From contig MHOO01000003.1 in NCBI GenBank assembly GCA_001820095.1, forward strand, positions 987 through 64,986: 64,000 nucleotides of DNA. Reading direction: 5' to 3'. A program made the position numbers and the translations under genes. The DNA comes from Candidatus Staskawiczbacteria bacterium RIFCSPHIGHO2_01_FULL_39_25 (GTDB taxonomy: Bacteria > Patescibacteriota > Minisyncoccia > Minisyncoccales > Staskawiczbacteraceae). The notes beneath the pieces were generated by a model, which was not told where the DNA came from, ran no database searches, and saw only the letters and a list, made by a program, of their open reading frames with translations. Below are positions 3,822 through 50,121 of this stretch, piece by piece. The stretch's first letter is position 1. Each line of letters starts with the position of its first letter.

Positions 3822-4292
3822 ATGCGAAGGGCCTATAAAAAACACAAAGTTGCCCCGGACACCTTATACCAAGACGTACAGGTTGCCCAATTGATCAACA
3901 AGGTGATGACCCAGGGGAAAAAGTCAACCGCACAAAAAATTGTGTACATGGCTTTTGATGCCATAAAACAAAAAACCCAAAAAGAGCCCTTGGAGGTTTT
4001 CAAGCAAGCGGTTGAAAATGCTTCTCCCGTATTAGAGGTAAAGCCAAAGAGGATCGGGGGAGCCACGTATCAGGTACCTATGGAGGTGCGGCAGGAACGG
4101 AGGATCTTTTTATCGTTAAAATGGATTATTGACGGAGCAAGGTCTGGAAAAGGCAAATCAATGGCAGAAAAGCTTAGCCAGGAGATCATGAACGTAGCCA
4201 ACAACGAAGGCATGGCAATGAAACGGAAAAACGATATGCATAGAATGGCAGAGGCAAACAAGGCTTTTGCTCATTTTGCGCGCTCTCGCTAG
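3822..4292 (+). CDS. rpsG: 30S ribosomal protein S7
   Basis: 156 aa; [15 protein letters not shown]...AFAHFAR. Confidence 0.97.
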
Positions 4293-4294
4293 AA

Positions 4295-4402
4295 CGTGAA
4301 TTCAGTATCTTGTATCTAGTAGCTAGAATGGAATTTTGAATACAGAATTCAGGATTCTTTTATTCTATTCTAGCTTCCAGCTGCTAGCTCCTAGATTCAA
4401 AT
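4295..4402. repeat. MITE-like palindromic element, family B, copy 1
   Basis: Starts ACGTGAAT just after the rpsG stop. Arms are 7-nt units (GTATCTT/GTAGCTA versus TAGCTTC/TAGATTC). Confidence 0.85.
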
Positions 4403-4404
4403 TT

Positions 4405-6480: not shown

Positions 6481-6532
6481 TCATTGACTAATTTTTAGAT
6501 ATATAATACAATTAAAACATTAATAAAAACTT

Positions 6533-6662
6533 AACGTGAATCTGGCAGCTAGAAGCTTGAATCTTGAATAGAATACAGAATTCTGAATAATCGTGGCAAA
6601 GCCTATATTCTGAATTCAATATTCCATTCAAGCTACTAGATACTCTATTCTAGATTCTCACA
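6533..6662. repeat. MITE-like palindromic element, family B, copy 2
   Basis: ACGTGAATCTGG...TAGATTCTCAC; imperfect palindrome between fusA and tuf. Confidence 0.85.
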
Positions 6663-6666
6663 AACT

Positions 6667-8252: not shown

Positions 8253-8303
8253 TAGTATAGTTAAAATTAAACAATTGTTAACTTTTCCATGATATTTTTT
8301 GAT

Positions 8304-8363
8304 TCACCCGATCAAATAATTTTGCAAAGCAAAATTAGCGCAAGGCGCTATTTGACCGGGTAA
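8304..8363 (+). ncRNA. Three-helix structured element, family H, copy 1
   Basis: Outer stem acccgatcaaa/tttgaccgggt encloses hairpins attttgc-aaa-gcaaaat and tagcgc-aagg-gcgcta. The second copy at 37105 has the same architecture with different hairpin sequences. Confidence 0.6.
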
Positions 8364-8393
8364 AAATATTATAGAATAACAACATTGCCATTG

Positions 8394-8416
8394 AACTGGG
8401 CAATTGCCCAGTTTTT
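8394..8416 (+). terminator. Terminator-like stem-loop 15 nt upstream of the rplC start
   Basis: aactggg-caattg-cccagtt followed by ttttt. Confidence 0.45.
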
Positions 8417-8430
8417 CATTAGAAACAAAG

Positions 8431-9030
8431 ATGAAATTCATTTTAGGAAAAAAAATTGAAATGTCCCAGATGTTTGATGAAAAGGGAAAAGTAATCCCCG
8501 TAACTTTGATTTCAGCGGGGCCATGCGTAGTATTGCAGAAAAAAACCAAAGAAAAAGAAGGATACAATGCCCTGCAGGTGGGTTTTATAAAAATTGAAAA
8601 AAAGAGTAAGGTTAAGAAAACGATGAAGGGAAAAGAATATAGGTACATAAAAGAATTTTTAGTTATTAATGATCAATTATCCAAAAACGTTGGCGATGCA
8701 ATTAATCTTGCTGAATTTAAAGAAGGAGATAAGGTAAATATAGTGGGAATTTCCAAGGGAAAGGGGTTTCAAGGAGCAGTGAAAAGGCATGGGTTTTCAG
8801 GCAGGAATGCAACCCATGGCGCCAAGCACGAAGCCAGAACTGTCGGATCAATCGGGCAAAGGTTTCCTCAGCATACGATCAAAGGGAGAAGAATGCCAGG
8901 AAGGATGGGATACGAAAGGGTTACCGTAAAAAATTTAATAGTCGCAAAAATTGACGCAGAAAATAATATTTTGGCGTTGAAGGGAGCCGTACCGGGACAT
9001 AGAGGTACGTTGCTAGAGATTAGAGGATAG
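8431..9030 (+). CDS. rplC: 50S ribosomal protein L3
   Basis: MKFILGKKIEMSQMFDEKGKVIPVTLI...GFQGAVKRHGF. Confidence 0.95.
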   Translation: MKFILGKKIEMSQMFDEKGKVIPVTLISAGPCVVLQKKTKEKEGYNALQVGFIKIEKKSKVKKTMKGKEYRYIKEFLVINDQLSKNVGDAINLAEFKEGDKVNIVGISKGKGFQGAVKRHGFSGRNATHGAKHEARTVGSIGQRFPQHTIKGRRMPGRMGYERVTVKNLIVAKIDAENNILALKGAVPGHRGTLLEIRG

Positions 9031-9045
9031 GGCGCTTACGGAAGT

Positions 9046-9185
9046 CTTTTGCAATGATGTTAAAAGTACCGATAGTCGAAATTGCCAGCGCAATTTCGCT
9101 ATCTAAATTCTCGGCAGTTTGCGCCGCCAAAGGCGGCGACCATGCCAAACTGCCTGCGAAATTTACTTTTAACATCACTGCAAAA
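9046..9185 (+). ncRNA. 140-nt multi-helix structured element, family G, copy 1 (rplC-rplD spacer)
   Basis: P1 9046-9068/9163-9185 (23 bp). P2 is gatag/ctatc plus cgaaattgc-cagc-gcaatttcg. P3 is ggcagttt/aaactgcc enclosing cgccgcc-aaa-ggcggcg. Junction sequences are identical to the copy at 16276. Confidence 0.65.
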
Positions 9186-9246
9186 GTGAAAATCTTTTCC
9201 ATGCGCTAAAGTAAAATCTTTTATTAGTAATTAGAAATTTGCAGGC

Positions 9247-10425: not shown

Positions 10426-11274
10426 ATGAAGACGTATAAACCAACTACACCAAGCCGAAGAGGAATGACTGGAATTGACTTTTCTTTGCTTACCAAGAAA
10501 AAAGCAGAAAAGAGCCTTTTGAAATATGTCAGAAGAAGCGTTGGAAGGTCCAAAGCATCAGGAAGAATTACCGTACGACATAAAGGCGGAGGGGTAAAAA
10601 AACTCTATAGGATTATAGAATTCAGCCAGAGCATTATGGATGCGCCCGCGAAGGTGATTGCCTTAGAATATGACCCTAATAGGACCGCATTTATTGCACT
10701 AATAGAATATCCTTCAACAGTTTCGGGAAAAGTCCCAAAAAGACAATATATTATCGCCCCGCAGGATTTAAAAGTTGGCGATAGTATTATTTTTTCAGAT
10801 AAGGCGCTTCTTACGGCTGGAAACAGAATGAAGCTAAAAAATATATCGGTGGGGACTGCAGTGTATAACATTGAATTAGAGCCGGGCAGGGGAGGAATTT
10901 TAGTAAGATCAGCGGGGTCAGCAGCCCAAGTATTAGCGCAAGAGCACAGCTTTACCAACTTGAAAATGCCTTCGGGCGAAGTAAGAAGAGTAAAAGATGA
11001 ATGTTTTGCTTCTATAGGAATGGTTTCAAATCCAGAAAACAGATTTTATACGGTAGGAAAGGCAGGCAAATCAAGGCTAAAGGGAAGAAGGCCGCATGTG
11101 AGGGGAAGTGCCATGAATCCTGTTGACCATCCGCACGGAGGGGGCGAGGGCCGCCAGCCCATTGGATTAAAACATCCAAAAACTCCATGGGGTAAACCAG
11201 CATTAGGAGTGAAAACAAGATATCGAAAAAAGTGGACAAACAAATATATTATCAGCCGCAGGAAAAAGAAGTAA
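10426..11274 (+). CDS. rplB: 50S ribosomal protein L2
   Basis: RGSAMNPVDHPHGGGEGR. Confidence 0.97.
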   Translation: MKTYKPTTPSRRGMTGIDFSLLTKKKAEKSLLKYVRRSVGRSKASGRITVRHKGGGVKKLYRIIEFSQSIMDAPAKVIALEYDPNRTAFIALIEYPSTVSGKVPKRQYIIAPQDLKVGDSIIFSDKALLTAGNRMKLKNISVGTAVYNIELEPGRGGILVRSAGSAAQVLAQEHSFTNLKMPSGEVRRVKDECFASIGMVSNPENRFYTVGKAGKSRLKGRRPHVRGSAMNPVDHPHGGGEGRQPIGLKHPKTPWGKPALGVKTRYRKKWTNKYIISRRKKK

Positions 11275-11276
11275 CG

Positions 11277-11392
11277 TGAATATAGAATCTGGTATCTGGA
11301 AGCTAGAATGGAATAAAGAATAGTGAATGTGTATGAAATTCTAAATTCCAAATTCAATTCAAGCTTCAAGATACTAAATTCAAGATTCAAAA
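11277..11392. repeat. MITE-like palindromic element, family B, copy 4
   Basis: CGTGAATATAGAATCTGGTATCTGG...CAAGATACTAAATTCAAGATTCAAA. Confidence 0.85.
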
Positions 11393-11394
11393 CA

Positions 11395-11727
11395 ATGAGC
11401 AGGAGTTTAAAAAAAGGTCCGTTTGTGGATCAAAAATTAATAGAGAAGGTCTTAAAGGTAAGGAAAGAAGAAAAGGTTATTATTAAGACTTGGGCACGAT
11501 ATTCAACTATTTCTCCTGAAATGGTAGGGTTTACCTTTGGCGTGCATAATGGGAAGGAATTTGTTCCGGTATATGTAGGAGAGGATATGGTGGGGCACAA
11601 GTTAGGAGAATTTGCTCCTTCTACCAAGTTTTCAAGGCATGGAGGACGAATGCAGAAAGAGTTAGAGCAAAGATCTGAACAAGCCACCGCGGTAAAAACA
11701 GAAGCAGTAACAAAACCAGCAAAATAA
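11395..11727 (+). CDS. rpsS: 30S ribosomal protein S19 (with C-terminal extension)
   Basis: [12 protein letters not shown]...[13 protein letters not shown]. Confidence 0.95.
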
Positions 11728-11808
11728 CAATTGACAATTGACAATTGACAATTGACAACGTTTTCTAAAATTCGTTGGTCAAATGTTAAATGTCAAAGGT
11801 CAAATGTA
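11728..11808. repeat. Heptamer-array hairpin, family A, (ACAATTG)n / (GTCAAAT)n, copy 1
   Basis: Begins at the nucleotide after the rpsS TAA. Four ACAATTG units, an acg...cgt loop, then a GTCAAAT-type right arm. Confidence 0.9.
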
Positions 11809-11811
11809 GTA

Positions 11812-12291
11812 ATGGAAGTAAAAGTTTCATTGAACAATTTAAGAACGGCGCCACGAAAGTCACGGGAAGTGGTTGATTTAATACGGAATAAAAATGTGGC
11901 ACAAGCTAGGAGCCTCCTTGAGTTTACGGTTAGAAGATCAGCAGAACCTATACTAAAGCTTTTAAATAGCGCGGCAGCTTCGGCAGTACATGATTTTAAA
12001 TTAGAAGAATCTAATTTATACATTTCTAAAGTAACCGTAGATGAGGGGCCGAAATTAAAAAGATGGCATCCTATGTCCCGAGGCAGAGCATATCCTATTA
12101 TCAAAAGAACGTCGCATATTACTCTGATATTGTCAGAGAAATCCGAAGACGGGAGTTTCGGCAGAGCCGAAAACTCTCGCGTCTCGCAAGCACGAAATCC
12201 GAAATCCGAAACCGCCCCAACATTAAAGATTGTTAAAAAAAGCAAGCCAAATCTAAAATCTAAAACCAAGAAAATTAAAAAAAATAAATAA
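11812..12291 (+). CDS. rplV: 50S ribosomal protein L22 with a C-terminal extension of about 50 aa that reads through a family C repeat arm
   Basis: MEVKVSLNNLRTAPRKSREVVDLIR...RTSHITLILSEK core, then SEDGSFGRAENSRVSQARNPKSE... encoded by repeat sequence. Confidence 0.92.
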   Translation: MEVKVSLNNLRTAPRKSREVVDLIRNKNVAQARSLLEFTVRRSAEPILKLLNSAAASAVHDFKLEESNLYISKVTVDEGPKLKRWHPMSRGRAYPIIKRTSHITLILSEKSEDGSFGRAENSRVSQARNPKSETAPTLKIVKKSKPNLKSKTKKIKKNK

Positions 12292-12354: not shown

Positions 12355-13029
12355 ATGACTCACAAGGTACATCCAAAAGCATTTAGAATAAAAGGAATGG
12401 AGGATTTCAATATCCGCGGTTTTTATGGCAATAAAATGCCTCAGTATTTAGAGGAAGACTTTTTAATTAAGGATTTTCTAAGGGATAAATTATCGGAAGC
12501 GTCGGTTGCAAATATAGAAATAGAGCATTCTGCAAGTAAATTGAATATTATTATTGAAACAGCAAGGCCAGGGCTGATTATAGGGCGAGGAGGAGAAGGA
12601 GTAGAAATATTAAAGAAAGCCATAGAGCAGAAATTAAAAAATTTGAGAAAAACAAGCATTGGGGCTGCGTTAAAGTCTCAGGTGGGGCAAGTAAAAATAG
12701 ATATTAAAGAAATTAAAAACCCGTGGATTTCTGCGATGCTGGTTGCCCAGATGGCTGCTCAGCAAATTGAAAAAAGGATTCCTTTCAGGCAAGTATTAAA
12801 AAGAAGCATAGAGCGGGTGATGCAGAATAAAGAAGTGAAAGGCATAAAAATGGAGGTCTCAGGAAGATTAAACGGCATTGAAATTGCACGAAAAGAATGG
12901 TTAAAGCAAGGCAGAATGCCCCTGCAAACCATACGGGCAGATATTGATTATGCCCAAACGGAAGCGTATTGCACCTATGGAGCCATTGGGGTAAAAGTAT
13001 GGCTATATAAAGGAGAAAAGTTTGAATAA
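12355..13029 (+). CDS. rpsC: 30S ribosomal protein S3
   Basis: KVHPKAFRI...RPGLIIGRGGEG...SGRLNGIEIAR. Confidence 0.96.
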   Translation: MTHKVHPKAFRIKGMEDFNIRGFYGNKMPQYLEEDFLIKDFLRDKLSEASVANIEIEHSASKLNIIIETARPGLIIGRGGEGVEILKKAIEQKLKNLRKTSIGAALKSQVGQVKIDIKEIKNPWISAMLVAQMAAQQIEKRIPFRQVLKRSIERVMQNKEVKGIKMEVSGRLNGIEIARKEWLKQGRMPLQTIRADIDYAQTEAYCTYGAIGVKVWLYKGEKFE

Positions 13030-13110
13030 CAATTGACAATTGACAATTGACAATTGACAACGGTGCATTTAGCTCGTTGGTCAAATGTTAAATGTTAAAA
13101 GTCAAATGTA
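13030..13110. repeat. Heptamer-array hairpin, family A, copy 2
   Basis: TAA|CAATTGACAATTGACAATTGACAATTGACAACG...GGTCAAATGTTAAATGTTAAAAGTCAAATG. Confidence 0.9.
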
Positions 13111-13124
13111 TAAGCATGAGCTTA

Positions 13125-16275: not shown

Positions 16276-16415
16276 CTTTTGCAGCGATTTTAAAAGTACC
16301 GATAGTCGTCCCGACCAGCGTCGGGACGCTATCTAAATTCTCGGCAGTTTATTCCGCTGAAGCGGAAACCATGCTAAACTGCCTGCGAAATTTACTTTTA
16401 AAATCGTTGCAAAAG
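16276..16415 (+). ncRNA. 140-nt multi-helix structured element, family G, copy 2 (rpsH-rplF spacer)
   Basis: Same helices and junctions as 9046-9185, but the hairpins are replaced with compensation: cgtcccgac-cagc-gtcgggacg and ttccgc-tgaa-gcggaa. Confidence 0.65.
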
Positions 16416-16500
16416 AAAAGATATTTCAGTTGTTAAGAATTTTGTAAAAAAAGAGCGCCGATGGATTTTCGACGGTAGCTAGGAAGAGTAGGTTTGAGAG

Positions 16501-16585: not shown

Positions 16586-17137
16586 ATGAGCCGAATCGGT
16601 AAAAAATTAATTGAAATTCCTTCTGCTGTAAAAGTGGAATTTGACGGCCAGAATGTGAAAGTTTCAGGGCCAAAAGGGGAATTAAAAACCATAATCCATC
16701 GCGATATTAAAGCGGAAGCGAAAGATGGCAAGATTTTTGTATCCCCTAAAAGCAAGGATGCATCTAATAAGGTGAGAGGATTATGGGGCCTGTACCGGGC
16801 ATTAATTTTTAATATGATACAAGGGGTGGAAAAAGGCTTTGAAAAGAAACTGGAAATTGAGGGTGTTGGTTATAAAGCGGCAGTGCAGGGAGATGAATTG
16901 GTGTTGAACCTTGGATTTGTGAATCCGGTTAAAATTAAAAAGCCCGAAGGAATTACCTTTGCTGTTGAAAAAAATCTTATTACTATTTCAGGAATTAATA
17001 AAGAAGCTGTTGGACAAATTGCCGCAGAAATACGGGCAACTAAAAAAGCAGAGCCATATAAAGGCAAAGGCATTAAATACCAGGGAGAAAGGATTAGGAG
17101 AAAAGAAGGAAAGAAGGTAGTCGCCGCCAAGAAATAG
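16586..17137 (+). CDS. rplF: 50S ribosomal protein L6
   Basis: MSRIGKKLIEIPSAVKVEFDGQNVKVSGPKGEL. Confidence 0.96.
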   Translation: MSRIGKKLIEIPSAVKVEFDGQNVKVSGPKGELKTIIHRDIKAEAKDGKIFVSPKSKDASNKVRGLWGLYRALIFNMIQGVEKGFEKKLEIEGVGYKAAVQGDELVLNLGFVNPVKIKKPEGITFAVEKNLITISGINKEAVGQIAAEIRATKKAEPYKGKGIKYQGERIRRKEGKKVVAAKK

Positions 17138-17248
17138 GAATCTAGATTCTTGTATCTTGAAGCTAGAATACAAAAAAACAAGAGTAGGATTTAGAAATTC
17201 AATATTCAAAATTCTATTCAAGATACCAGATACAAGACTCAAGATTCA
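17138..17248. repeat. MITE-like palindromic element, family B, copy 6
   Basis: ggaatctagattcttgtatcttgaagctagaat...attcaagataccagatacaagactcaagattc. Confidence 0.85.
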
Positions 17249-17256
17249 TTTTGACT

Positions 17257-17709: not shown

Positions 17710-18252
17710 ATGGCAGAAGATACAACAATAAAAAAACCACAGGAATTAGAAAAAGCTTCTCAAAAAGATGATGGCTTTAGGCCGGTCAGAAAGTTTGGTT
17801 CGCGTCCAGGTGCCCCAAAAGATGATTTTGAAACTAAGCTTTTGGATTTAGCAAGGGTTACCAGAGTTACCGGTGGCGGAAAAAGGATGAGTTTTAGGGC
17901 GGTTGTCGTAGCAGGAGATAAAAAAAGCAAAATTGGCATTGGCATAGATAAGGGGAAAGACGTATCCCAGGCAATAGAAAAAGCAACGAGCAGGGCTAAG
18001 AAAAATTTGATTACGGTGGTTATCGTAAATGGAACGATTCCCCACCAAGTGCAGGCAAAAGTAGGACCTGCGGTAATACTATTAAAACCCCAGAGAAAAG
18101 GCAGGGGCCTGGTGGCCGGGGGAGCTGTAAGGGTTATTTGTGACCTAGCAGGCATAAAAAACGTTTCTTCAAAAATTCTTTCTGGATCAAAAAATAAGCT
18201 TAACAATGCGCGGGCAACCATGGAAGCATTGCGCAAGCTAAAAGCTCGCTAA
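17710..18252 (+). CDS. rpsE: 30S ribosomal protein S5
   Basis: RVTRVTGGGKRMSFRAVVVAGD...GRGLVAGGAVR. Confidence 0.95.
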   Translation: MAEDTTIKKPQELEKASQKDDGFRPVRKFGSRPGAPKDDFETKLLDLARVTRVTGGGKRMSFRAVVVAGDKKSKIGIGIDKGKDVSQAIEKATSRAKKNLITVVIVNGTIPHQVQAKVGPAVILLKPQRKGRGLVAGGAVRVICDLAGIKNVSSKILSGSKNKLNNARATMEALRKLKAR

Positions 18253-18330
18253 CAATTGACCATTAACATGTGACCATTGACTGACGACGTCGCGATTGGT
18301 CAATTGTTAATTGTCAAATGTCAATTGTCA
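18253..18330. repeat. Heptamer-array hairpin, family A variant (CCATTGA units), copy 5; it fills the position where rpmD (L30) normally sits
   Basis: TAA|CAATTGACCATTAACATGTGACCATTGAC...GGTCAATTGTTAATTGTCAAATGTCAATTGTCA. Confidence 0.85.
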
Positions 18331-18334
18331 TATT

Positions 18335-18766
18335 ATGCAGATACATCAATTACAACCTATCCATAGCTCCAAGAACAGGAAACGGGTTGGCCGAGGAGGC
18401 AAGAAAGGCACGTATTCTGGAAAAGGAGGGAAGGGCCAAACCGCAAGAGCTGGCAGAAAACTGGCGCCTATTATCAGGGAGCTTATTAAAAGGTATCCAA
18501 AGCTAAAAGGATATCGCAGGTTTGTTTTGGAAAATAATTCAACGGTAGTAAATCTAGACATGCTTAATAAGCATTTCAAAGATGGAGAAGTTGTAAATCC
18601 AGCAAATTTGATTACAAAGGGAATAGTACATATGATAAAAGGCAAAGTTGGAGAGGTGAAGATTCTTGGAAAGGGCGTGTTGGATAAAAAGCTAACTATT
18701 GAAAACTGCAAGGTTTCAGAAACTGCAAAAAAAGCCATTGAAAAAGCGGGCGGCACCGTGAAATAA
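18335..18766 (+). CDS. rplO: 50S ribosomal protein L15
   Basis: MQIHQLQPIHSSKNRKRVGRGGKKGTYSGKGGKGQ. Confidence 0.94.
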   Translation: MQIHQLQPIHSSKNRKRVGRGGKKGTYSGKGGKGQTARAGRKLAPIIRELIKRYPKLKGYRRFVLENNSTVVNLDMLNKHFKDGEVVNPANLITKGIVHMIKGKVGEVKILGKGVLDKKLTIENCKVSETAKKAIEKAGGTVK

Positions 18767-20299: not shown

Positions 20300-21013
20300 A
20301 TGTCAAAGCAAGTTATTATTTTATTCGGGCCGCCGGGGGCGGGAAAAGGCACGCAGTCAGAGCTCTTATCTGAAAAGATGGGGCTGTATTTATTTGAGAC
20401 CAGCAAAATTCTAGAAAAGGAGTTTAAAAAAGCAGAAGATATGCCAGGAGATTCCCCTGAACGGTTTGTAGAAATTGAAGGCGAAAAATTTGATGTATTA
20501 AATGAAAAAGAAATTTGGAAAAAAGGGGAATTATGCAGTCCGCCGTGGGTAACCTATCTTACGATGAAAGAGTTTAAACGATTACATGATGATGGCGATA
20601 ATTTAATTATTGCGGGATCTCCAAGAACCGTTTACGAAGCCGAACGGGAGATGCCTCTTTTGGCTGAATTATATGGCAAGGAACATATAAAAATAGTACT
20701 AATAGAAATTTCAGCGGATGTAACGGTATTCAGGAACACGCATAGGAAGATTTGCGAGTTAATGCGCCACTCTATTTTATTTAATAAAGAAACCGAAACG
20801 CTGACGATTTGCCCTTTAGACGGTTCTAAATTAATGAAACGCAAAGATCTAGATGATCCCGAAACCATAAAAACAAGGCTTGAACAATATAAAGCAAGAA
20901 CCCTGCCGTTATTCAATTATTTTAAAGAGAATAATTTTAACGTCCATAAAATCAATGGAGAGGGAAGTGTGGCAAAGGTGCATGAAGAAATACTGCGAAT
21001 AGTGGAAGTGTGA
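20300..21013 (+). CDS. adk: Adenylate kinase (long form)
   Basis: MSKQVIILFGPPGAGKGTQ P-loop. The TGA stop is part of the GTGAAT terminus of repeat B7. Confidence 0.85.
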   Translation: MSKQVIILFGPPGAGKGTQSELLSEKMGLYLFETSKILEKEFKKAEDMPGDSPERFVEIEGEKFDVLNEKEIWKKGELCSPPWVTYLTMKEFKRLHDDGDNLIIAGSPRTVYEAEREMPLLAELYGKEHIKIVLIEISADVTVFRNTHRKICELMRHSILFNKETETLTICPLDGSKLMKRKDLDDPETIKTRLEQYKARTLPLFNYFKENNFNVHKINGEGSVAKVHEEILRIVEV

Positions 21014-21146
21014 ATATAGAATCTCATATCTTGAATCTGGAATACCTGCCTGCGCAGGCAGGGAATAAAAGAATACTGAATGTAAAAATTCACATTCTAA
21101 ATTCATTATTCAATTCAAGCTACAAGATACAAAATTCAAGATTCAA
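21009..21146. repeat. MITE-like palindromic element, family B, copy 7, with a GC-rich apical palindrome
   Basis: GTGTGAATATAGAATCTCATATCTTG...; apex cctgcctgcgcaggcagg at 21045-21062. Confidence 0.85.
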
Positions 21147-21151
21147 TTTAG

Positions 21152-26598: not shown

Positions 26599-26847
26599 AT
26601 GAATCAAAACGAAGGTACCAATAGCGACCAAAATAGCAAGAAAATTATAAAATGCGAAGGTGTTGTTATGGAGGCTTTGCCAAACGCCTTTTTTAGGGTA
26701 TTATTAAGCGACGGCAGAGAGATTATAGGATTTTTATCGGGTAAAATGAGGCTTAATAAAATCAAGATTTTAACGGGCGATAAGGTAACCATAGAAATGA
26801 CGCCCTATGACGAGAAGAAAGGAAGGATAGTGTATAGGCTAAAATAG
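26599..26847 (+). CDS. infA: Translation initiation factor IF-1
   Basis: [52 protein letters not shown]. Confidence 0.93.
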
Positions 26848-26850
26848 CCA

Positions 26851-26933
26851 ACAATTGACCATTGACAATTAACCATTGACAACGTTTTTAAAAATTCGTT
26901 ATGTCAAATGTTAAATGTCACATGTCAAATGTT
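26851..26933. repeat. Heptamer-array hairpin, family A, copy 7
   Basis: acaattgaccattgacaattaaccattgacaacg-tttttaaaaatt-cgttatgtcaaatgttaaatgtcacatgtcaaatgtt. Confidence 0.9.
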
Positions 26934-26938
26934 ATATT

Positions 26939-27055
26939 ATGAAGGTCAGGCCATCAATAAAAAAAATTTGCAATGACTGCCAGATTGTAAAAAGAGAGGG
27001 AAATTTATACGTTATTTGCAAAAAAAATCCAAAACATAAACAACGCCAAGGCTAA
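26939..27055 (+). CDS. rpmJ: 50S ribosomal protein L36 (38 aa; below the ORF-track cutoff)
   Basis: Own translation: [38 protein letters not shown]. Confidence 0.9.
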
Positions 27056-27140
27056 CCATTGACCATTGACAATTGACCATTGACAACGTTTTTAAAAATT
27101 CGTTATGTCAAATGTCAAATGTCAAATGTCAAATGTCAAA
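27055..27140. repeat. Heptamer-array hairpin, family A, copy 8
   Basis: TAA|CCATTGACCATTGACAATTGACCATTGACAACG-TTTTTAAAAATT-CGTTATGTCAAATGTCAAATGTCAAATGTCAAATGTCAAA. Confidence 0.9.
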
Positions 27141-27142
27141 CT

Positions 27143-27532
27143 GTGCCACGTATCGCAGGGGTAACCATTCCCGAAAATAAAAGAATTGAAGTAGCCATTA
27201 CCTATATTTACGGTATCGGGAGTTCTTTAGGTAGAAAGATTTTAAGCCAGGCAAATATTGACGCTAATAAAAAAGCTAAAGATTTAACCCCCCAAGAAGT
27301 GAACCACTTAAGGGAAATCATTGAAAAAAGCCATAAAATTGAGGGAGATTTAAGAAGGCAAGTGATGGTAAATATAAAAAGACTAAAAGATATTAGCGCA
27401 TGGAGAGGATTGCGGCATGCCAAGAAATTACCCGTGAGAGGCCAAAGAACAAAGACAAATACCAGAACGGTGCGGGGCAATGTAAGAAAAACAATGGGGT
27501 CGGGAAGAAAGCCGGCAGCATCACCAACATAG
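27143..27532 (+). CDS. rpsM: 30S ribosomal protein S13 (GTG start)
   Basis: (M)PRIAGVTIPENKRIEVAITYIYGIG. Confidence 0.95.
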   Translation: MPRIAGVTIPENKRIEVAITYIYGIGSSLGRKILSQANIDANKKAKDLTPQEVNHLREIIEKSHKIEGDLRRQVMVNIKRLKDISAWRGLRHAKKLPVRGQRTKTNTRTVRGNVRKTMGSGRKPAASPT

Positions 27533-34374: not shown

Positions 34375-35382
34375 ATGTTTAACAATAAAATAGCTATTGA
34401 CCTTGGAACTTGCAACTCCTTAGTATACTTGCGTGGCAAGGGAGTAGTATTAAGCGAACCTTCTGTGGTGGCAATTTCCTTGTCTGATAATAGGATTCTG
34501 GCGGTAGGGGAAGCAGCAAAAGAAATGATAGGCCGGACTCCGGCTGATATTAAGGTATACCGGCCACTTAAAGACGGCGTCATTGCTGATTACAAAGTAA
34601 CTCAGGCAATGATGCGCCATTTCATTGCCAAGGCAACTCCTAACTTTAACTTTTTTAAGCCTGAACTGGTTATTTCGGTTCCTGCCGGCATTACCAGCAC
34701 CGAGAGGAGAGCGGTCATTGAAGCAGCTCTTTCGGCAGGGGCCAGGCAGGCATTTGTAGCCAAAGAGCCAATTTTAGCAGCCATTGGAGCAGGCATACCG
34801 ATTAACTCGTGCTCCGGCCATATGATTATTGATATTGGAGGGGGAACCTCTGAAGTGGCAGTCATTTCTTTGGGCGGTATTGTGACGGCCCATTCGGTAC
34901 GGGTAGCAGGGGATAAAATAGATCTTGCCATTACCGACTACATAAAAAAGAAATACAATTTAGCCATTGGCACCCAATCGGCAGAAGAAATAAAAATAAA
35001 GGTGGGGACAGCGCTCCCGCAGAAAGAACCCAGGTTTATGGAAATCCAGGGACGCGACTTGATTTTAGGTTTGCCAAGAAATATTAAAATATCAAATAAT
35101 GAGGTGTGCGAAGCAATTTCCGATGTATTGGCTGAAATTATCCAGGCGGCGAAACAGGTCTTATCTGAAACTCCGCCAGAGCTTTCCGCTGATATTATGA
35201 ATAAGGGAATTATTATGGCTGGCGGAGGATCATTGCTTCCTAAAATAAATGAGTTAGTTGCTCAAAGCACCGGGGTCCCCTGTTTTATTGCTGAAGAACC
35301 CTTGTTTTGCGTTATCAAGGGCACCGGCACAGTTTTAGAGCATTTAGAGGAATATAAAAAAGTGGTAATGTCAAAAAAATAG
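34375..35382 (+). CDS. mreB: Rod shape-determining protein MreB (paralog 1)
   Basis: IAIDLGTCNSLVY...IIDIGGGTSEVAVISLGGIV...MAGGGSLL. Confidence 0.95.
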   Translation: MFNNKIAIDLGTCNSLVYLRGKGVVLSEPSVVAISLSDNRILAVGEAAKEMIGRTPADIKVYRPLKDGVIADYKVTQAMMRHFIAKATPNFNFFKPELVISVPAGITSTERRAVIEAALSAGARQAFVAKEPILAAIGAGIPINSCSGHMIIDIGGGTSEVAVISLGGIVTAHSVRVAGDKIDLAITDYIKKKYNLAIGTQSAEEIKIKVGTALPQKEPRFMEIQGRDLILGLPRNIKISNNEVCEAISDVLAEIIQAAKQVLSETPPELSADIMNKGIIMAGGGSLLPKINELVAQSTGVPCFIAEEPLFCVIKGTGTVLEHLEEYKKVVMSKK

Positions 35383-35384
35383 AA

Positions 35385-35500
35385 TCTTGAATTTAGTATC
35401 TTGAAGCTTGAATTGAATTTTGAATTTGGAATGTGATGTTTTACATTCAGTATTCTCTTATTCTATTCTAGATTCAAGATACCAGATTCTAGATTCATAG
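35385..35500. repeat. MITE-like palindromic element, family B, copy 8, inverted relative to copies 4 and 9
   Basis: Its reverse complement (tgaatctagaatctggtatcttgaatctagaatagaat...caagatactaaattcaagattc) aligns with 11279-11392. Confidence 0.85.
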
Positions 35501-35504
35501 TGCT

Positions 35505-37104: not shown

Positions 37105-37174
37105 TTCACCCGGTCAAATAATTTTTGCTTTTGCAAAAATTAAAATCCTAAGGGATTTTATTTGATCGGGTAAA
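37105..37174 (+). ncRNA. Three-helix structured element, family H, copy 2
   Basis: Outer stem acccggtcaaa/tttgatcgggt encloses atttttgc-tttt-gcaaaaat and aaaatcc-taa-gggatttt. Confidence 0.6.
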
Positions 37175-37212
37175 GAATTAATTGAGAGAAAAGAAAAAGA
37201 ATTATTATAACA

Positions 37213-37291
37213 ACAATTGACAATTAACCATTGACAATTGACAGGAGTAAGAACGCTCGGTCAAATGTCAAATGTCAAATGTCAAATGTCA
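37213..37291. repeat. Heptamer-array hairpin, family A, copy 9
   Basis: acaattgacaattaaccattgacaattgacagg...cggtcaaatgtcaaatgtcaaatgtcaaatgtca. Confidence 0.9.
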
Positions 37292-38417
37292 CGTTGTGTT
37301 TTTAACTTTACTCATTGCTTTCTTGAGCCTCATAGCCTTAATGATTATCCATGAGTTTGGCCATTTTATCATTGCCAAAAAATTCGGCGTTAAGGTGGAA
37401 GAATTCGGCATAGGGTATCCGCCAAGGATTTTTGGCAAAAAATTCGGGGAAACTATATACTCTATCAATCTGGTGCCGCTGGGGGCCTTTGTGAAAATTT
37501 ATGGAGAAGAAGGCGGGATAGATGATTACCGAAGTTTTGCCAACCTTGCCATTTGGAAACGGATTTTAATTGTCTTGGGCGGCGTCATTGCGTTTTGGGT
37601 GGCGTCAGCCATTATTTTTTCTATTGCGTTTACGATAGGGGCTTTTGTTCCCATTGGAGACCAGGATATCCAAGGGTTTGCTAAAACCCATATTGCCATT
37701 GTGGCAATTGAAAAGGCATCTCCCGCTGATATTGCAGGGTTAAAAACGGGCGATAGGGTGATTAACCTTATTAATGCCAGCCAGAACATAGAGGTTAATA
37801 AAATTGCCGATTTCCAAAAATTTATCCAAGACAATAAAGGGAAATCCATTGCCCTAATTATCAGCAGGGATGGCAAGTATATTCCTTTTACTCTTACTCC
37901 GCGGGCGCAACACGGACCAAATGAAGGTCCTCTGGGCGTTGCGGTGGAAAGAATGGCAGAGGTGATTGAAAAACATCCCTGGTATGAGGCTCCGGTGCGG
38001 GGGACTATTTACTGTGTAACGGCTACGGGCAACGCCGTCAAAAGCATTGTTGACGTTCTGACAAGCATGTTTACAGGAAAAGGAGTTCCTGCGGGAGCGG
38101 AATTTGCCGGTCCTGTTGGCATTACGATCTTTTTGGCGCGGGCGGCTGACTACGGCCTTGGTTTTTTCTTGTATTTCATCGGCTCAATTTCTGTGCTGGT
38201 GGCTTTGTTTAACCTGTTTCCTATTCCTGCTTTAGACGGGGGAAAGCTTTTGTTTTTGATCATTGAAAAAATAAAAGGCAGGCCGGTTTCCGTGAAAATA
38301 GAACAAACATTAACGGTTATATTTTTTATTTTATTAATTTCCATGTCAATTTTTATAACTATTAAGTTTGATATCCCTCGCCTTTCAGATTTTTTTCGGG
38401 CAGGCGTTGGCAAATGA
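37272..38417 (+). CDS. rseP: RseP-type M50 site-2 protease with a PDZ domain. The start is uncertain: ATG 37272 lies in the repeat arm, and in-frame GTG 37296 is an alternative.
   Basis: HEFGHF zinc motif, PDZ-like AGLKTGDRVINL, NLFPIPALDGG. Confidence 0.88.
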   Translation: MSNVKCHVVFLTLLIAFLSLIALMIIHEFGHFIIAKKFGVKVEEFGIGYPPRIFGKKFGETIYSINLVPLGAFVKIYGEEGGIDDYRSFANLAIWKRILIVLGGVIAFWVASAIIFSIAFTIGAFVPIGDQDIQGFAKTHIAIVAIEKASPADIAGLKTGDRVINLINASQNIEVNKIADFQKFIQDNKGKSIALIISRDGKYIPFTLTPRAQHGPNEGPLGVAVERMAEVIEKHPWYEAPVRGTIYCVTATGNAVKSIVDVLTSMFTGKGVPAGAEFAGPVGITIFLARAADYGLGFFLYFIGSISVLVALFNLFPIPALDGGKLLFLIIEKIKGRPVSVKIEQTLTVIFFILLISMSIFITIKFDIPRLSDFFRAGVGK

Positions 38418-45420: not shown

Positions 45421-45588
45421 GGAGTATATATACAACCACGCTAAAACCTATTTTGTGGAAAATTGACGAACGAACCGACGACGAACAAGACCGTATGCCC
45501 GCGGGCACACGGGGCGAAACAAACGACGAGCAAAAATTTTCTGGGCTGGGGGGAGAAAATTTTTGCCGTTAAGGCGAGTAAATTTTAA
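45421..45588. repeat. Left arm of a perfect 168-bp inverted repeat
   Basis: I reverse-complemented it by hand; it is identical at 168/168 positions to 47079-47246. Confidence 0.95.
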
Positions 45589-45633
45589 ATATTGAGAATT
45601 TAGATAAAAGATGATAATATATATGTAAATATT

Positions 45634-46548
45634 ATGAATCAAAAAGGTTTTATTCAAATACCTGTACTCGTCTCAATTATTGTGGGTGTTTTAATTTTGG
45701 GTAGTGGAGGATATTTTGGAGTAAAACAATATAGAAACTATCAATTAGAAAGAATTGAAAAAGAAAAAATTTATCAAACAGAAAAAGAAACTCAACAGCA
45801 AAAAGATTTGGAAGTTGAAAAGTTGAAAAAAGAGGTAGAGGAATTAAAAAATAAGAAACCAGAGGTTGTACAACAAACCATAGTTAAAGAAGTTATTGTG
45901 CCAAAAACAGAAATGGATCTTCCATCTATAATTAAACAATGGAGACCCAGAATAGTCTATATTGTTTGTGAATGGAGGTATTCTGATACTGGAGAAGTTT
46001 ATGCTCAAGGCAGCGGCTCAGGATTACTTTTTGCAAAATCTAAAGACAATTTAGCTTTACTTGTAATGACAAACAAACATGTTTTAGCGGATGGTCAATA
46101 TGTGGCAAGTTCGTGCGATATTTCTTTTCCTAGTTTAAATGAAACATTTAAGGTGAGTACAAATTCTTTGATGGAATCTGTTTCGGGACTTGACTGGGGA
46201 TTAATTCGTTTCCAATCTTCCAACGGATACTTGAATTCTCTTGTTGTATCTGGTCCCATTGAATCATATCCCTCTGTTTGTAAAAAACCTGCGTTAGTAG
46301 GAGATGAAATAGTTATTTTAGGTTATCCTGGAATTGGTTCTCAATCTGATATAACAGCGACAGAAGGAATAATCTCAGGGCGTGATGGAGATTATTACAT
46401 TACCTCTGCTAAAATCGATCGTGGTAATTCTGGTGGAGCTGCTATATCTTTAAAAGACAATTGCTATCTAGGTATTCCAAGTTTTGCACAAGTTGGTCAA
46501 ATAGAATCCTTGGGAAGGATTTTAGACATAGAAGCAGTGTATAAATAA
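45634..46548 (+). CDS. Membrane-anchored trypsin-like (S1/HtrA-type) serine protease with a coiled-coil linker
   Basis: N-terminal TM helix, EKEKIYQTEKETQQQKDLEVEKLKKEVEELK, then TNKHV (His) and DRGNSGGAA (Ser) motifs. Confidence 0.8.
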   Translation: MNQKGFIQIPVLVSIIVGVLILGSGGYFGVKQYRNYQLERIEKEKIYQTEKETQQQKDLEVEKLKKEVEELKNKKPEVVQQTIVKEVIVPKTEMDLPSIIKQWRPRIVYIVCEWRYSDTGEVYAQGSGSGLLFAKSKDNLALLVMTNKHVLADGQYVASSCDISFPSLNETFKVSTNSLMESVSGLDWGLIRFQSSNGYLNSLVVSGPIESYPSVCKKPALVGDEIVILGYPGIGSQSDITATEGIISGRDGDYYITSAKIDRGNSGGAAISLKDNCYLGIPSFAQVGQIESLGRILDIEAVYK

Positions 46549-47078: not shown

Positions 47079-47246
47079 TTTAAAATTTACTCGCCTTAAC
47101 GGCAAAAATTTTCTCCCCCCAGCCCAGAAAATTTTTGCTCGTCGTTTGTTTCGCCCCGTGTGCCCGCGGGCATACGGTCTTGTTCGTCGTCGGTTCGTTC
47201 GTCAATTTTCCACAAAATAGGTTTTAGCGTGGTTGTATATATACTC
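47079..47246. repeat. Right arm of the perfect 168-bp inverted repeat
   Basis: See 45421-45588. It contains the internal palindrome tgcccgcgggca. Confidence 0.95.
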
Positions 47247-48913: not shown

Positions 48914-50015
48914 ATGGTCCAAATAACTCAAAATATAGAGGGATTAGAGGAGAAAGTCCATTATTTAGTGGACCGCCTTTGATGTAAATGGAAAGCAAAA
49001 AGAGTTAAAGAAGCTGGAAGCAGAAACACAGGCCCCTGAATTTTGGAAAGACCAGGAAAGGGCAACTGCCGCAAGCCAAAAGATCGCTTTTTTAAAAGAG
49101 GAAATAGAAACAATAGAATCACTGAAAAAAGAATTAATTGACCTAAAAGAGCTGGAGTATTTGACAAAAAGCGATGAAAACCTTAAGAAAGAACTAGAAA
49201 AAAAGTGGAGCGTATTGAAAGAAAAAATTGCCAAAGAAGAATTTAGAATTTTCTTATCTGGCAAATACGACCGCAATAATGCGATTATAGAAATATTTTC
49301 GGGGGCAGGGGGTGTGGATGCCCAGGATTGGGCCACGATGCTTTTGAGGATGTATGAGAGGTATTGCGCACAAAAAAGGTTTTCAGTCCAGGTGTTGCAC
49401 CAGTCGTTTGGGGAGGCAGGCGGGCCGGATGGAAGAATTGGCACAAAATCAGCTACCTTGGAAATAAAAGGGAAGTATGCTTACGGCCTTTTAAAAAAAG
49501 AGACGGGAGTCCATAGATTGGTGCGCATTTCTCCGTTTAGTGCCCAAAAATTGCGCCATACATCTTTTGCGTTGGTTGAGGTTTTGCCGGAAATAGAGCA
49601 GCAAGATACAGAAATTGAAATAAAGCCTGAAGAGTTAAAAATAGATACATTCAGGGCATCAGGGCCTGGGGGGCAGTACGTCAACAAAACGGAATCAGCC
49701 ATACGAATTACCCATATACCAACAGGTCTGGTAGTTTCTTCGCAGTCAGAACGGCTGCAAGGCAAGAATAAGGAACACGCCATGAAAATCCTGTATGCCA
49801 AACTGCATCAGTTGCAAGCAGTAGAACATAAAAAAGAGCTGAAGGAAATTAAGGGCGAATCAATTTCTGCGTCTTGGGGGAACCAGATACGGTCATATGT
49901 CCTGCACCCTTATAGGATGGTAAAAGATTTAAGAACGCAGTATGAAACATCGGACACGGAAGGAGTATTGGATGGGGAATTAGATGAATTTATACAGGCC
50001 GAAATAAGAATCTAG
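48914..50015 (+). CDS. prfB: Peptide chain release factor 2, requiring a programmed +1 frameshift at CTT TGA T (48977-48983)
   Basis: Frame 1 is MVQITQNIEGLEEKVHYLVDRL, then TGA. The +1 frame continues DVNGKQKELKKLEAETQAPEFWKDQERA...SGPGGQYVNKTESAIRITHIPTG. Confidence 0.9.
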
Positions 50016-50121
50016 AATCTGGAATCTTGAATCTGGAATAGAATGCTGAATATGGGGCTTCGTATTCTAAATTCCAAATTCAATTCAAGCTACCAGATAC
50101 TAAATTCAAGATTCAAGTTAT
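50016..50121. repeat. MITE-like palindromic element, family B, copy 9
   Basis: tctagaatctggaatcttgaatctggaatagaat...attcaagctaccagatactaaattcaagattcaag. Confidence 0.85.

Follow-up and report, generated by a model that had tools for sequence, protein, structure and literature searches.

Two intergenic spacers in the window, by which we mean the whole 64,000-nucleotide stretch of DNA analysed here, carry a small three-helix element that we call family H. The copy between rpsJ and rplC raises the question of whether such an element is a regulatory RNA kept in place for its fold, or a repeat that has been copied into this and other sites. An earlier note on this DNA had placed two copies in the window, with shared termini forming an outer stem, and both were confirmed by sequence comparison and RNAfold. 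The genes it named were also correct: S10 and L3 flank copy 1, and RRF and an M50 peptidase flank copy 2. The two copies share 16-nt termini, TTCACCCGRTCAAATA ... TATTTGAYCGGGTAAA, which pair around two inner hairpins. Across the 64-kb window a 14-mer arm with 0-1 mismatch occurs at these four arm positions only, and a covariance model of the family gave no third copy in the window (next match 18 bits, E 0.04).

Copy 1 lies on the + strand and its whole conserved span, running from TTCA and a 13-nt arm to a second 13-nt arm and AAA, covers 8303..8364 in the rpsJ-rplC spacer (covariance model 84.8 bits, E 1.5e-19). The 5' terminal arm, TTCACCCGATCAAATA, occupies 8303..8318 and includes C8305, the conserved C of a C.A opposition, and A8311, the A of an A.C opposition; the 3' terminal arm, TATTTGACCGGGTAAA, at 8349..8364 includes C8356 and A8362. 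Enclosed by these arms are inner hairpin 1 (ATTTTGC / AAA / GCAAAAT, 8319..8335), which is seen in the sequence, in RNAfold and in covariation, and inner hairpin 2 (GCGC / AAG / GCGC, 8338..8348), in place of which the orthologous copy at locus L041 has AAAATCC/GGATTTT. Copy 2, again on the + strand, spans 37105..37174 (83.3 bits, E 3.8e-19), starting 10 nt past the frr stop codon and upstream of the M50 peptidase (rseP-like) gene. Its 5' arm, TTCACCCGGTCAAATA (37105..37120, with C37107 and G37113), and 3' arm, TATTTGATCGGGTAAA (37159..37174, with T37166 and A37172), flank hairpin 1 (ATTTTTGC / TTTT / GCAAAAAT, 37121..37140) and hairpin 2 (AAAATCC / TAA / GGGATTTT, 37142..37159), both from sequence and RNAfold.

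Whichever strand was folded, RNAfold returned the same architecture of an outer stem and two hairpins for each copy; z was -4.3 (copy 1) and -6.4 (copy 2) for the + strand and -7.2 and -7.8, respectively, for the - strand. The outer stem had been described as 11 bp long; the stem itself stands, but in both copies it comprises 13 bp (ACCCGRTCAAATA/TATTTGAYCGGGT) and it reaches 17 positions when TTCA is paired with TAAA, which it matches apart from the conserved C.A opposition. The inner hairpins had been said to differ completely between the copies, which is true of hairpin 2, where one hairpin has been replaced by another, but not of hairpin 1, where ATTTTGC and ATTTTTGC differ by a single base.

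A covariance search in relatives, proposed as a check of the original observation, found further copies, almost all with three helices. Scans with the exact two-arm pattern, in which the variable position was left free, returned 13 loci among GTDB species genomes. Nine of these are true members, from three Staskawiczbacteria MAGs and one Paceibacterota MAG; the remaining four, from unrelated organisms, are no more than perfect simple hairpins. The same pattern gave 66 loci in metagenomes, 62 of them true members, and 63-64 distinct copies were left once duplicates had been removed. The covariance model, run over all fetched DNA (short loci, 2-14 kb each, in which gene calls are ORF-based), added about ten more, diverged copies, several of which belong to a GTTAAATA/TATTTAAC subfamily whose outer stem is altered on both sides. 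Taking pattern scans and model together, family H numbers about 75 copies, spread over 4 GTDB MAGs and some 60 metagenome contigs, and its hosts are Candidatus Staskawiczbacteria and related Paceibacteria, represented by MAGs and metagenomes. A viral collection contained no H copy, and Rfam at gathering and permissive thresholds gave no family match, only tRNAs and noise. The literature we searched holds no description of H, nor of small palindromic repeats in the Candidate Phyla Radiation. The element is sparse, at 2 copies per 64 kb, and every copy in a given genome differs from the others, which gives no hint of a recent burst.

The element is 55-80 nt long. Its conserved span can be written (AAR)TTCACCCGRTCAAATA ... 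TATTTGAYCGGGTAAA(AA), and there is no conservation beyond it. The 16-nt terminal inverted repeats, which are imperfect, are invariant or nearly so among 63 copies, with TTCA at the 5' foot in 95-100% of copies and TAAA(AA) as the downstream flank, but because the exact-pattern scans fixed 22 outer-stem positions these figures overstate outer-stem conservation, and only the diverged copies found by the model are informative on how this stem evolves. Three complete diverged copies carry compensatory changes in the outer stem, C-G to U-A and U-A to C-G. No target-site duplication was found: the TTCA and TAAA flanks are not direct repeats, and positions further out are unmatched. In 667 kb of fetched DNA, 89 of 91 arm pairs have 20-54 nt between them, the rest being a nested copy and a chance pair, and neither solo arms nor long elements with H ends were convincingly seen.

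The interior, a core of 30-45 nt, is always built from two short hairpins of a few recurring and interchangeable types, which fall into one group with ATTTTGC, ATTTCGC and ATCCGCC and another with AAAATCC, AAATTCT, GCGC, GCC and CCGC; the order of the types relative to the asymmetry of the flanks is not fixed. When 37 copies were aligned with MAFFT, 98-99% of the cells in the inner helices were paired, and both partners had changed in 9 of the 11 inner pairs; a covariation score as high as the observed one was reached in 0 of 500 shuffles. The spacing of the arms and the pairing of the inner helices make the three-helix architecture a conserved property of the family, as had been suggested from the two window copies. 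Copies lacking it, which had been named as evidence to the contrary, come down to one interior-less remnant. Covariation of this kind also means that screens for RNA motifs will take H for a riboregulator.

Which strand the fold serves can be asked of the mismatches. Read in the direction that puts TTCA at the left, which is the sense strand, 59 of 63 copies have C.A as the outermost variable pair. The position singled out in the earlier note does show the oppositions described, A8311.C8356 in copy 1 and, at the same place in the outer stem, G37113.T37166 in copy 2; over the 63 copies it reads, in gene sense, A.C in 42, G-C in 11, G.U in 8 and A-U in 1. The argument drawn from it, that A.C had been exchanged for an isosteric G.U, fails, since A.C is the usual state and a mismatch rather than a compensated pair. 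Nor does the comparison give any strand information, because the complementary strand of the same copies reads G.U and C.A. Across the family the complementary strand has U.G and G.U at the two asymmetric positions; it folds better in 54 of the 63 copies, by 4.5 kcal/mol on average. The inner stems contain 920 Watson-Crick pairs, 13 G.U and 18 A.C on the sense strand (97% Watson-Crick). G.U is not commoner than A.C there, and the strand-specific pairing that would mark a cis-regulatory RNA is thus not seen. A palindrome at the DNA level is expected to have few wobble pairs and to treat both strands alike, as the inner stems do; an RNA under selection on one strand would leave a different signature. 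Adding two asymmetric positions, inherited or selected, to such a palindrome would account for the whole pattern.

The stronger fold of the opposite strand could also be read as an orientation-specific intrinsic terminator of antisense transcription, with a fully paired 17-bp stem (U.G and G.U replacing the mismatches) and a T-rich flank. The A-rich upstream flank of the sense strand would indeed become U-rich after the stem, and copy 2 of the window gives GGGUGAACUUUUUUAUUU. However, this flank is only about 50% U over its first 8 nt, near background, and begins with C in 40% of cases; copy 1 of the window has no U run, and of the two copies only copy 1 has a hit in the terminator scan, namely its inner hairpin. 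Branched stems are moreover atypical of terminators, and the intragenic, nested and rRNA copies described below would be left unexplained, so that we regard antisense termination as very improbable. An intrinsic terminator on the sense strand was likewise rejected: there is no U tract, the downstream flank is TAAA(AA), and the terminator scans report none at either window copy.

The kept asymmetry (C/T, A/G), which persists across genera in half-sites that are both conserved in sequence, might instead point to a DNA site for a protein, either the operator of a global regulator or an attC/dif-like recombination site read as folded single-stranded DNA. Strand asymmetry with maintained mismatches recalls the extrahelical bases of attC. 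A fixed double-stranded operator is nevertheless excluded by the variable inter-arm distance (30-53 nt), and intragenic and nested copies are unfit for a regulatory site. As for recombination, H ends in TTCACCC/GGGTAAA and has none of the RYYYAAC...GTTRRRY core sites of integron attC, and its neighbours are housekeeping genes, with no integrase or cassette-like genes. We therefore give a protein site very little credence. A reading as tRNA-like punctuation, with the C.A opposition as position -1 and discriminator, was also set aside; the 13-bp stem and the missing arms do not fit.

We then compared the orientation of H with that of its neighbours, a further check that had been suggested. The TTCA-to-TAAA direction is that of the adjacent gene or rRNA in 58 of 64 distinct copies, opposite in four (L007, L010, L035, L068) and ambiguous in two, and so the two orientations are far from equal. 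At L022 and L023 the adjacent gene lies on the local minority strand, and H follows the gene. Local GC skew was tried as a means of separating replication from transcription orientation and was dropped, as skew in these 2-14 kb loci simply tracks the coding strand. A sense ATG opening an ORF lies 60 nt or less away in 28 of 64 copies, and in 17 copies it lies 7-11 nt after CGGG, for example at tuf, dnaK (in two species) and rplV. Six copies end the upstream ORF at a TAA within their 5' arm. The neighbours themselves are unrelated, including tuf, dnaK, rplV, rplC, rpmE, rseP, 16S, 23S-5S and ackA, and no single gene family or pathway stands out. At one rRNA locus just 2 nt separate the end of H from position 1 of the downstream 16S model, and H also occurs in the 23S-5S spacer, ahead of 23S and beside a group I intron. 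A promoter in or just upstream of H was rejected for want of a -10 box at a fixed distance, and one using the TTGACC of the 3' arm was rejected because its -10 would fall inside the coding region.

The window covers the str/S10/spc ribosomal-protein region and downstream genes, has 39% G+C and carries almost all of its genes on the + strand. Nearly all of its spacers hold hairpin-forming repeats, which belong to several families; the 33 spacers of 35-400 nt have a median fold z of -3.9, and their last paired base lies at a median of 7 nt before the ATG. Orthologous spacers in relatives have other hairpin families in the place of H. No Shine-Dalgarno motif was found at the window gene starts, and the 16S of a related contig ends GGAUCAUUUUUUUA, not GGAUCACCUCCUUA. 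Loss of the anti-Shine-Dalgarno motif has been published for part of the Parcubacteria (PMC9297842). We considered the GGGU of the 3' arm as a Shine-Dalgarno sequence and rejected it, given that the related 16S has no CCUCC and the window genes have no Shine-Dalgarno motif. The gene-sense orientation of H and its fixed distance from starts, in hosts without an anti-Shine-Dalgarno, provide a handle on how starts are defined there.

The copies upstream of dnaK in two species (L074 and L076) were compared in the same light. They are 95% identical, with 3 of ~66 positions differing, all in loops or at a loop edge and including one closing pair, whereas the third codon positions of the two dnaK genes are only 52% identical. 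Such conservation reflects either purifying selection or the re-insertion or concerted evolution of a conserved subtype. Unless re-insertion or concerted evolution is at work, it looks like selection for a host function and thereby counts against a mobile element.

Several of these data speak for H being primarily a functional cis-acting RNA, that is, a Y-shaped leader or intercistronic stem-loop that would insulate or stabilise the mRNA, or mark a processing site, and would offer a single-stranded UAAAA tract and the start codon to ribosomes, with spread being rare and secondary. The 58:4 bias towards gene orientation, minority-strand genes included, and the tight spacing of 7-11 nt fit a role at the RNA level at least as well as they fit a target preference. 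The copies next to 16S and between 23S and 5S, the strong covariation of the inner stems, the dnaK-upstream orthologues conserved far beyond synonymous sites, the folding of the window spacers up to a few nucleotides before the ATG, the other hairpin families in orthologous spacers and the missing anti-Shine-Dalgarno all point the same way. Against it stand the two mismatches that the sense-strand outer stem usually carries (C.A in 59/63, A.C in 42/63), the better fold of the opposite strand and the absence of a sense-strand G.U excess in the inner stems. Close relatives also lack H in orthologous spacers, and an RNA of this kind would be pointless at some of the sites: the reading frame of ackA, a 5S pseudogene, the inside of another H and the loop of a different leader hairpin. 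On balance we consider a primary RNA function unlikely, though clearly more credible than a terminator or a protein site, and H does not look like a dedicated cis-regulatory RNA.

The rpsJ-rplC spacer itself supplies evidence that H is inserted. This spacer contains a conserved attenuator-like leader in which a stem and a hairpin precede a terminator, ACTGGGCAATTGCCCAG, with a run of T after it. In the window the 5' arm of the rplC-leader hairpin, ATGATATTTTT, lies at 8289..8299 and the 3' arm, AAAAATATTAT, at 8362-8372, both on the + strand, and the apical loop of this pre-existing hairpin holds copy 1. In orthologous hairpins this loop holds H at L041 and is plain at L084, L087, L088, L091, L092 and L093. 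The covariance model detected no H in the plain-loop loci, nor in the rpsJ-rplC spacers of L085 and L086, which are unalignable. L087 and L093 have TTCA-C-TAAA in their empty loops, against TTCA[CCCG...CGGG]TAAA in the filled form, and the same loop of L089 holds the interior-less, H-like remnant. Empty loops could in principle be products of excision or deletion rather than ancestral. Between the window and L041 the flanks, the arms and hairpin 1 are shared and hairpin 2 is completely different; a swap of this kind at an orthologous site implies exchange, by recombination, between copies.

Other copies likewise speak for insertion. At L054 (8519-8646) a complete H is nested in the hairpin-2 loop of another H, and at L006 a truncated 5S pseudogene is interrupted by H at loop C. 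In two species (L062 and L070) H lies in frame within the acetate kinase gene, ackA, with the ORF continuous; the usual TAA triplets of H are changed in these copies, and the insert encodes about 20 extra residues (VHPVKYRKAVISTKPKLFER) that have no counterpart in solved PDB AckA structures. Some interiors that are 88-97% identical are found at loci whose flanks are unrelated. Both filled/empty polymorphism and the occurrence of the same variant at unrelated loci are thus present. The earlier view, which set a selected fold against a simple repeat, is accordingly only partly borne out: the fold is maintained, but the choice between the two is not a real one, H being a dispersed repeat with insertion-type behaviour that also keeps its fold. 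For annotators, H is best masked, as it extends or interrupts ORFs, through the stop codons in the 5' arm of six copies and through the ackA insertion.

We therefore favour, with somewhat better than even confidence, the explanation that H belongs, like REP, RPE and MITE elements, to the miniature palindromes that are mobile or dispersed and non-autonomous. Small palindromic repeats of these classes are known from proteobacteria, firmicutes and cyanobacteria, and the sub-megabase genomes of the Candidate Phyla Radiation are usually seen as streamlined; here an element that keeps a Y fold has spread, across many species, into operons of housekeeping genes and of rRNA and into the gene of a metabolic enzyme. 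As the insertions show, H is copied as DNA to new sites without target-site duplication, and it lands in the loops of hairpins that were already there, in A-rich leaders shortly ahead of start codons, in rRNA spacers and, at least once, in frame in a protein gene; single-stranded loops and A-rich leaders would be its preferred sites. The copying machinery may recognise a folded single strand, with the 17-position outer stem and the Y-shaped core as its features, and recognition of the fold would keep the stems Watson-Crick on both strands while the loops drift. Insertion, or later retention, would be oriented with the adjacent gene, so that the mRNA would carry the version with two A.C/C.A mismatches, followed by UAAAA. 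H is probably co-transcribed, judging from its position inside operons, which would place a stable Y-shaped stem-loop 7-11 nt before many start codons. With no target duplication and no recognisable transposase, H offers a small model in which to ask how hairpin elements get copied and what keeps their stems paired.

A mobile origin leaves room for a later function. H is at least tolerated upstream of start codons, and the gene-sense orientation, the fixed start-codon spacing and the presence of other hairpin families at the same spacer positions allow that it may have been exapted as a leader or as an interchangeable intercistronic hairpin in a lineage without Shine-Dalgarno pairing. A bolder proposal is that starts in Parcubacteria lacking the anti-Shine-Dalgarno are marked by structure, namely a stable hairpin, ~7 unpaired A-rich nt and AUG. 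H would then be a mobile, portable leader in which the C.A opposition keeps UAAA single-stranded, possibly for pairing with the U-rich 3' tail of 16S. We regard this as speculative and rather doubtful; if true, it would mean that selfish palindromic elements have been taken over, across the genome, to punctuate translation and processing.

Phage T7-type intercistronic RNase III hairpins are irregular, stable stem-loops with mismatches in the lower stem that end a few nt before the next start. H resembles them functionally only, as an intercistronic stem-loop with lower-stem mismatches near the next start. Cleavage of H would be an analogy alone, and, unlike the T7 hairpins, H is dispersed over cellular genomes and also occupies sites that are not intercistronic.

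Among mobile repeats, H shares features with several classes and matches none of them in full. The RPEs, like H, are short palindromic repeats without a transposase of their own that occur at unrelated loci, in RNA genes and spacers (PMC10969869). They too insert in frame into protein genes, as H does in ackA at L062 and L070, and in other classes the Correia and ERIC elements are co-transcribed and processed by RNases (PMC10969869). RPEs, however, are about 100-150 bp long, belong to Rickettsia and encode a conserved peptide, whereas H is shorter (54-77 bp), comes from another phylum, has no match in Rfam or elsewhere, has one intragenic site (in two species) and combines a two-hairpin core with a 58:4 orientation bias. 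The REP/BIME (REPIN) repeats are short, imperfect, extragenic palindromes that make no target duplication, as in H, and they are co-transcribed in operons, as H probably is. In both the fold outweighs the core sequence. A conserved tetranucleotide at the 5' foot is a partial likeness, since that of H is TTCA and not the GTAG of REP. In contrast to REP, H copies are solitary and few, form no inverted doublets and fold into a branched Y instead of a single hairpin.

MITEs such as Correia of Neisseria, ERIC, RUP and BOX resemble H in having terminal inverted repeats around a variable core and in showing filled/empty polymorphism, and BOX elements are modular, as H is. Co-transcription into long stem-loops that RNases can process (PMC10969869) would be a further likeness. 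H differs from them in that it has no target duplication and no parent IS with the same ends, is much shorter, and has a core of two covarying hairpins. The IS200/IS605 elements come close to H in mechanism-related features: no duplication, a conserved 5' tetranucleotide (TTCA in H), hairpins that bear mismatches, strand-specific orientation and insertion into single-stranded loops. Yet H is one compound palindrome rather than separate left-end and right-end hairpins, a cognate TnpA was not found in the fetched loci, and in the two informative cases the orientation of H follows the gene and not the majority strand.

Finally, we searched for a protein that might mobilise H. No transposase is present among the window ORFs, and no parent or autonomous IS with H ends, and no linked transposase, was found in the 667 kb. 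IS200 and IS608 TnpA sequences were used as queries and weakly match one ORF, at L053, 770 nt from an H copy; the fetched loci contained no other IS200/IS608-like ORF. The product scores 33 bits against Pfam Y1_Tnp, and its best NCBIfam match is REP_Tyr_transpos at 36 bits, under the cutoff of 80. This Y1/RAYT-like gene has about 1,500 homologues, many of them in Patescibacteria, and at L053 and L094-L097 it sits in a syntenic PolX-Y1-NUDIX-MGMT neighbourhood. RAYT-like Y1 genes do exist in these genomes, a likeness to REP systems, but the gene is flanked by inverted GGTGTCGGAGACC hairpins, found nowhere else in the fetched DNA, and not by H. H is absent beside the orthologous genes of L094-L097. 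Given its own, different hairpin, its synteny and its orthologous loci devoid of H, a link between the RAYT-like protein and H is not supported, although the protein may act on H in trans. Two observations on the window itself may be added. The L3 protein that it encodes at 8431-9027 is identical to L3 of a RIFCSPLOWO2-series Candidatus Staskawiczbacteria MAG, and its ORFs include a trypsin-like peptidase, a CMAS methyltransferase, an AlwI-type endonuclease and a LexA-methylase fusion.

The rpsJ-rplC spacer of the window carries an attenuator-like conserved leader (8270-8421), which is also found in eight fetched loci of relatives (L041, L084, L085, L087, L088 and L091-L093; positions in L-numbered loci are their own). 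In this leader CAATTGTTAAC pairs with TAACAACATTG to form a stem that encloses a variable hairpin, and the stem is followed by a terminator consisting of ACTGGGCAATTGCCCAGT and a T run (8395-8416). An alternative pairing is available between CATTGCC and the 5' half of the terminator ACTGGGCAATTGCCCAGT. The leader is kept among relatives with or without the H element, a Y-shaped palindromic repeat of 54-77 bp, and it may be an r-protein autoregulatory leader. In one relative, L089, the same spacer contains a GIY-YIG nuclease ORF (961-1206) bordered by repeated GGGTGAAGAGTTGAC-type sequences, which may represent a homing-endonuclease-type insertion.

H copies also occur at other sites. In L062 (205-260) and L070 (148-203) the element lies inside the acetate kinase gene and is translated in frame. 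The roughly 20 extra residues fall between two stretches of the protein, one matching Thermotoga AckA (2iir) at residues 139-197 and the other at residues 197-354. In L006 (1-720, minus strand) a truncated second copy of 5S rRNA lies in the spacer that separates the 23S rRNA from the intact 5S rRNA; the H element breaks loop C of this truncated copy, which is degenerate beyond the insertion. Tandem arrangements were seen in L039 (3795-3860) and L021 (about 840-900), where a degenerate second H adjoins the 3' end of a canonical one and begins inside its TAAA.

Folding of the 33 window spacers of 35-400 nt is much stronger than that of their shuffles (median z -3.9), and in these spacers the last paired base lies a median of 7 nt 5' of the ATG. 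None of the window genes is preceded by a visible Shine-Dalgarno motif. The 16S rRNA 3' end in L026 (4630-4650) reads GGATCATTTTTTTA, with a U run in place of the anti-Shine-Dalgarno CCUCC; this motif has been lost in part of the Parcubacteria (PMC9297842). The U run might conceivably base-pair to A-rich leaders.

Other hairpin families were noted in the window spacers. Long heptamer-repeat hairpins, with (CAATTGA)n in one arm and (TCAAATG)n in the other, were observed in 11 of them (for example 11719-11816, 13025-13118, 18241-18337, 26847-26941, 27051-27145 and 37202-37298); they occupy many ribosomal-protein operon spacers and reach or enter the start codon (ATGTCAAATGTC...). Another large family, built from GAATCT/AGATTC-type units, is present in both orientations (4289-4404, 6525-6663, 11265-11394, 17129-17253, 21003-21150, 35369-35504 and 49995-50120), and its members stop a few nucleotides 5' of start codons. 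A nested-hairpin repeat of 152 nt has two copies (9046-9197 and 16276-16426) in which the inner hairpin is wholly rewritten with complementarity kept, GAAATTGC/GCAATTTC versus GTCCCGAC/GTCGGGAC.

A RAYT-like (REP-associated tyrosine transposase-like) Y1 gene of the IS200 type is syntenic in L053 (2496-3301), L094 (6001-6795) and L097 (3855-4767), within a conserved PolX-Y1-NUDIX-MGMT neighbourhood. The gene is bracketed by inverted hairpin copies with the core GGTGTCGGAGACC, and no hairpin with this core was found away from it in the 667 kb of fetched DNA.

Elsewhere in the window, a segment of 1.5 kb lies between the arms of a perfect 168-nt inverted repeat (45422-45589 and 47079-47246). It carries the genes for a trypsin-like peptidase (45634-46548) and for a protein of 168 aa that matches nothing in Pfam, and it could be invertible or duplicated. 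On the minus strand, 54226-57380 encodes an AlwI-family restriction endonuclease and an adjoining protein in which a LexA DNA-binding domain and an S24 peptidase domain are fused to an N6/N4 DNA methylase.
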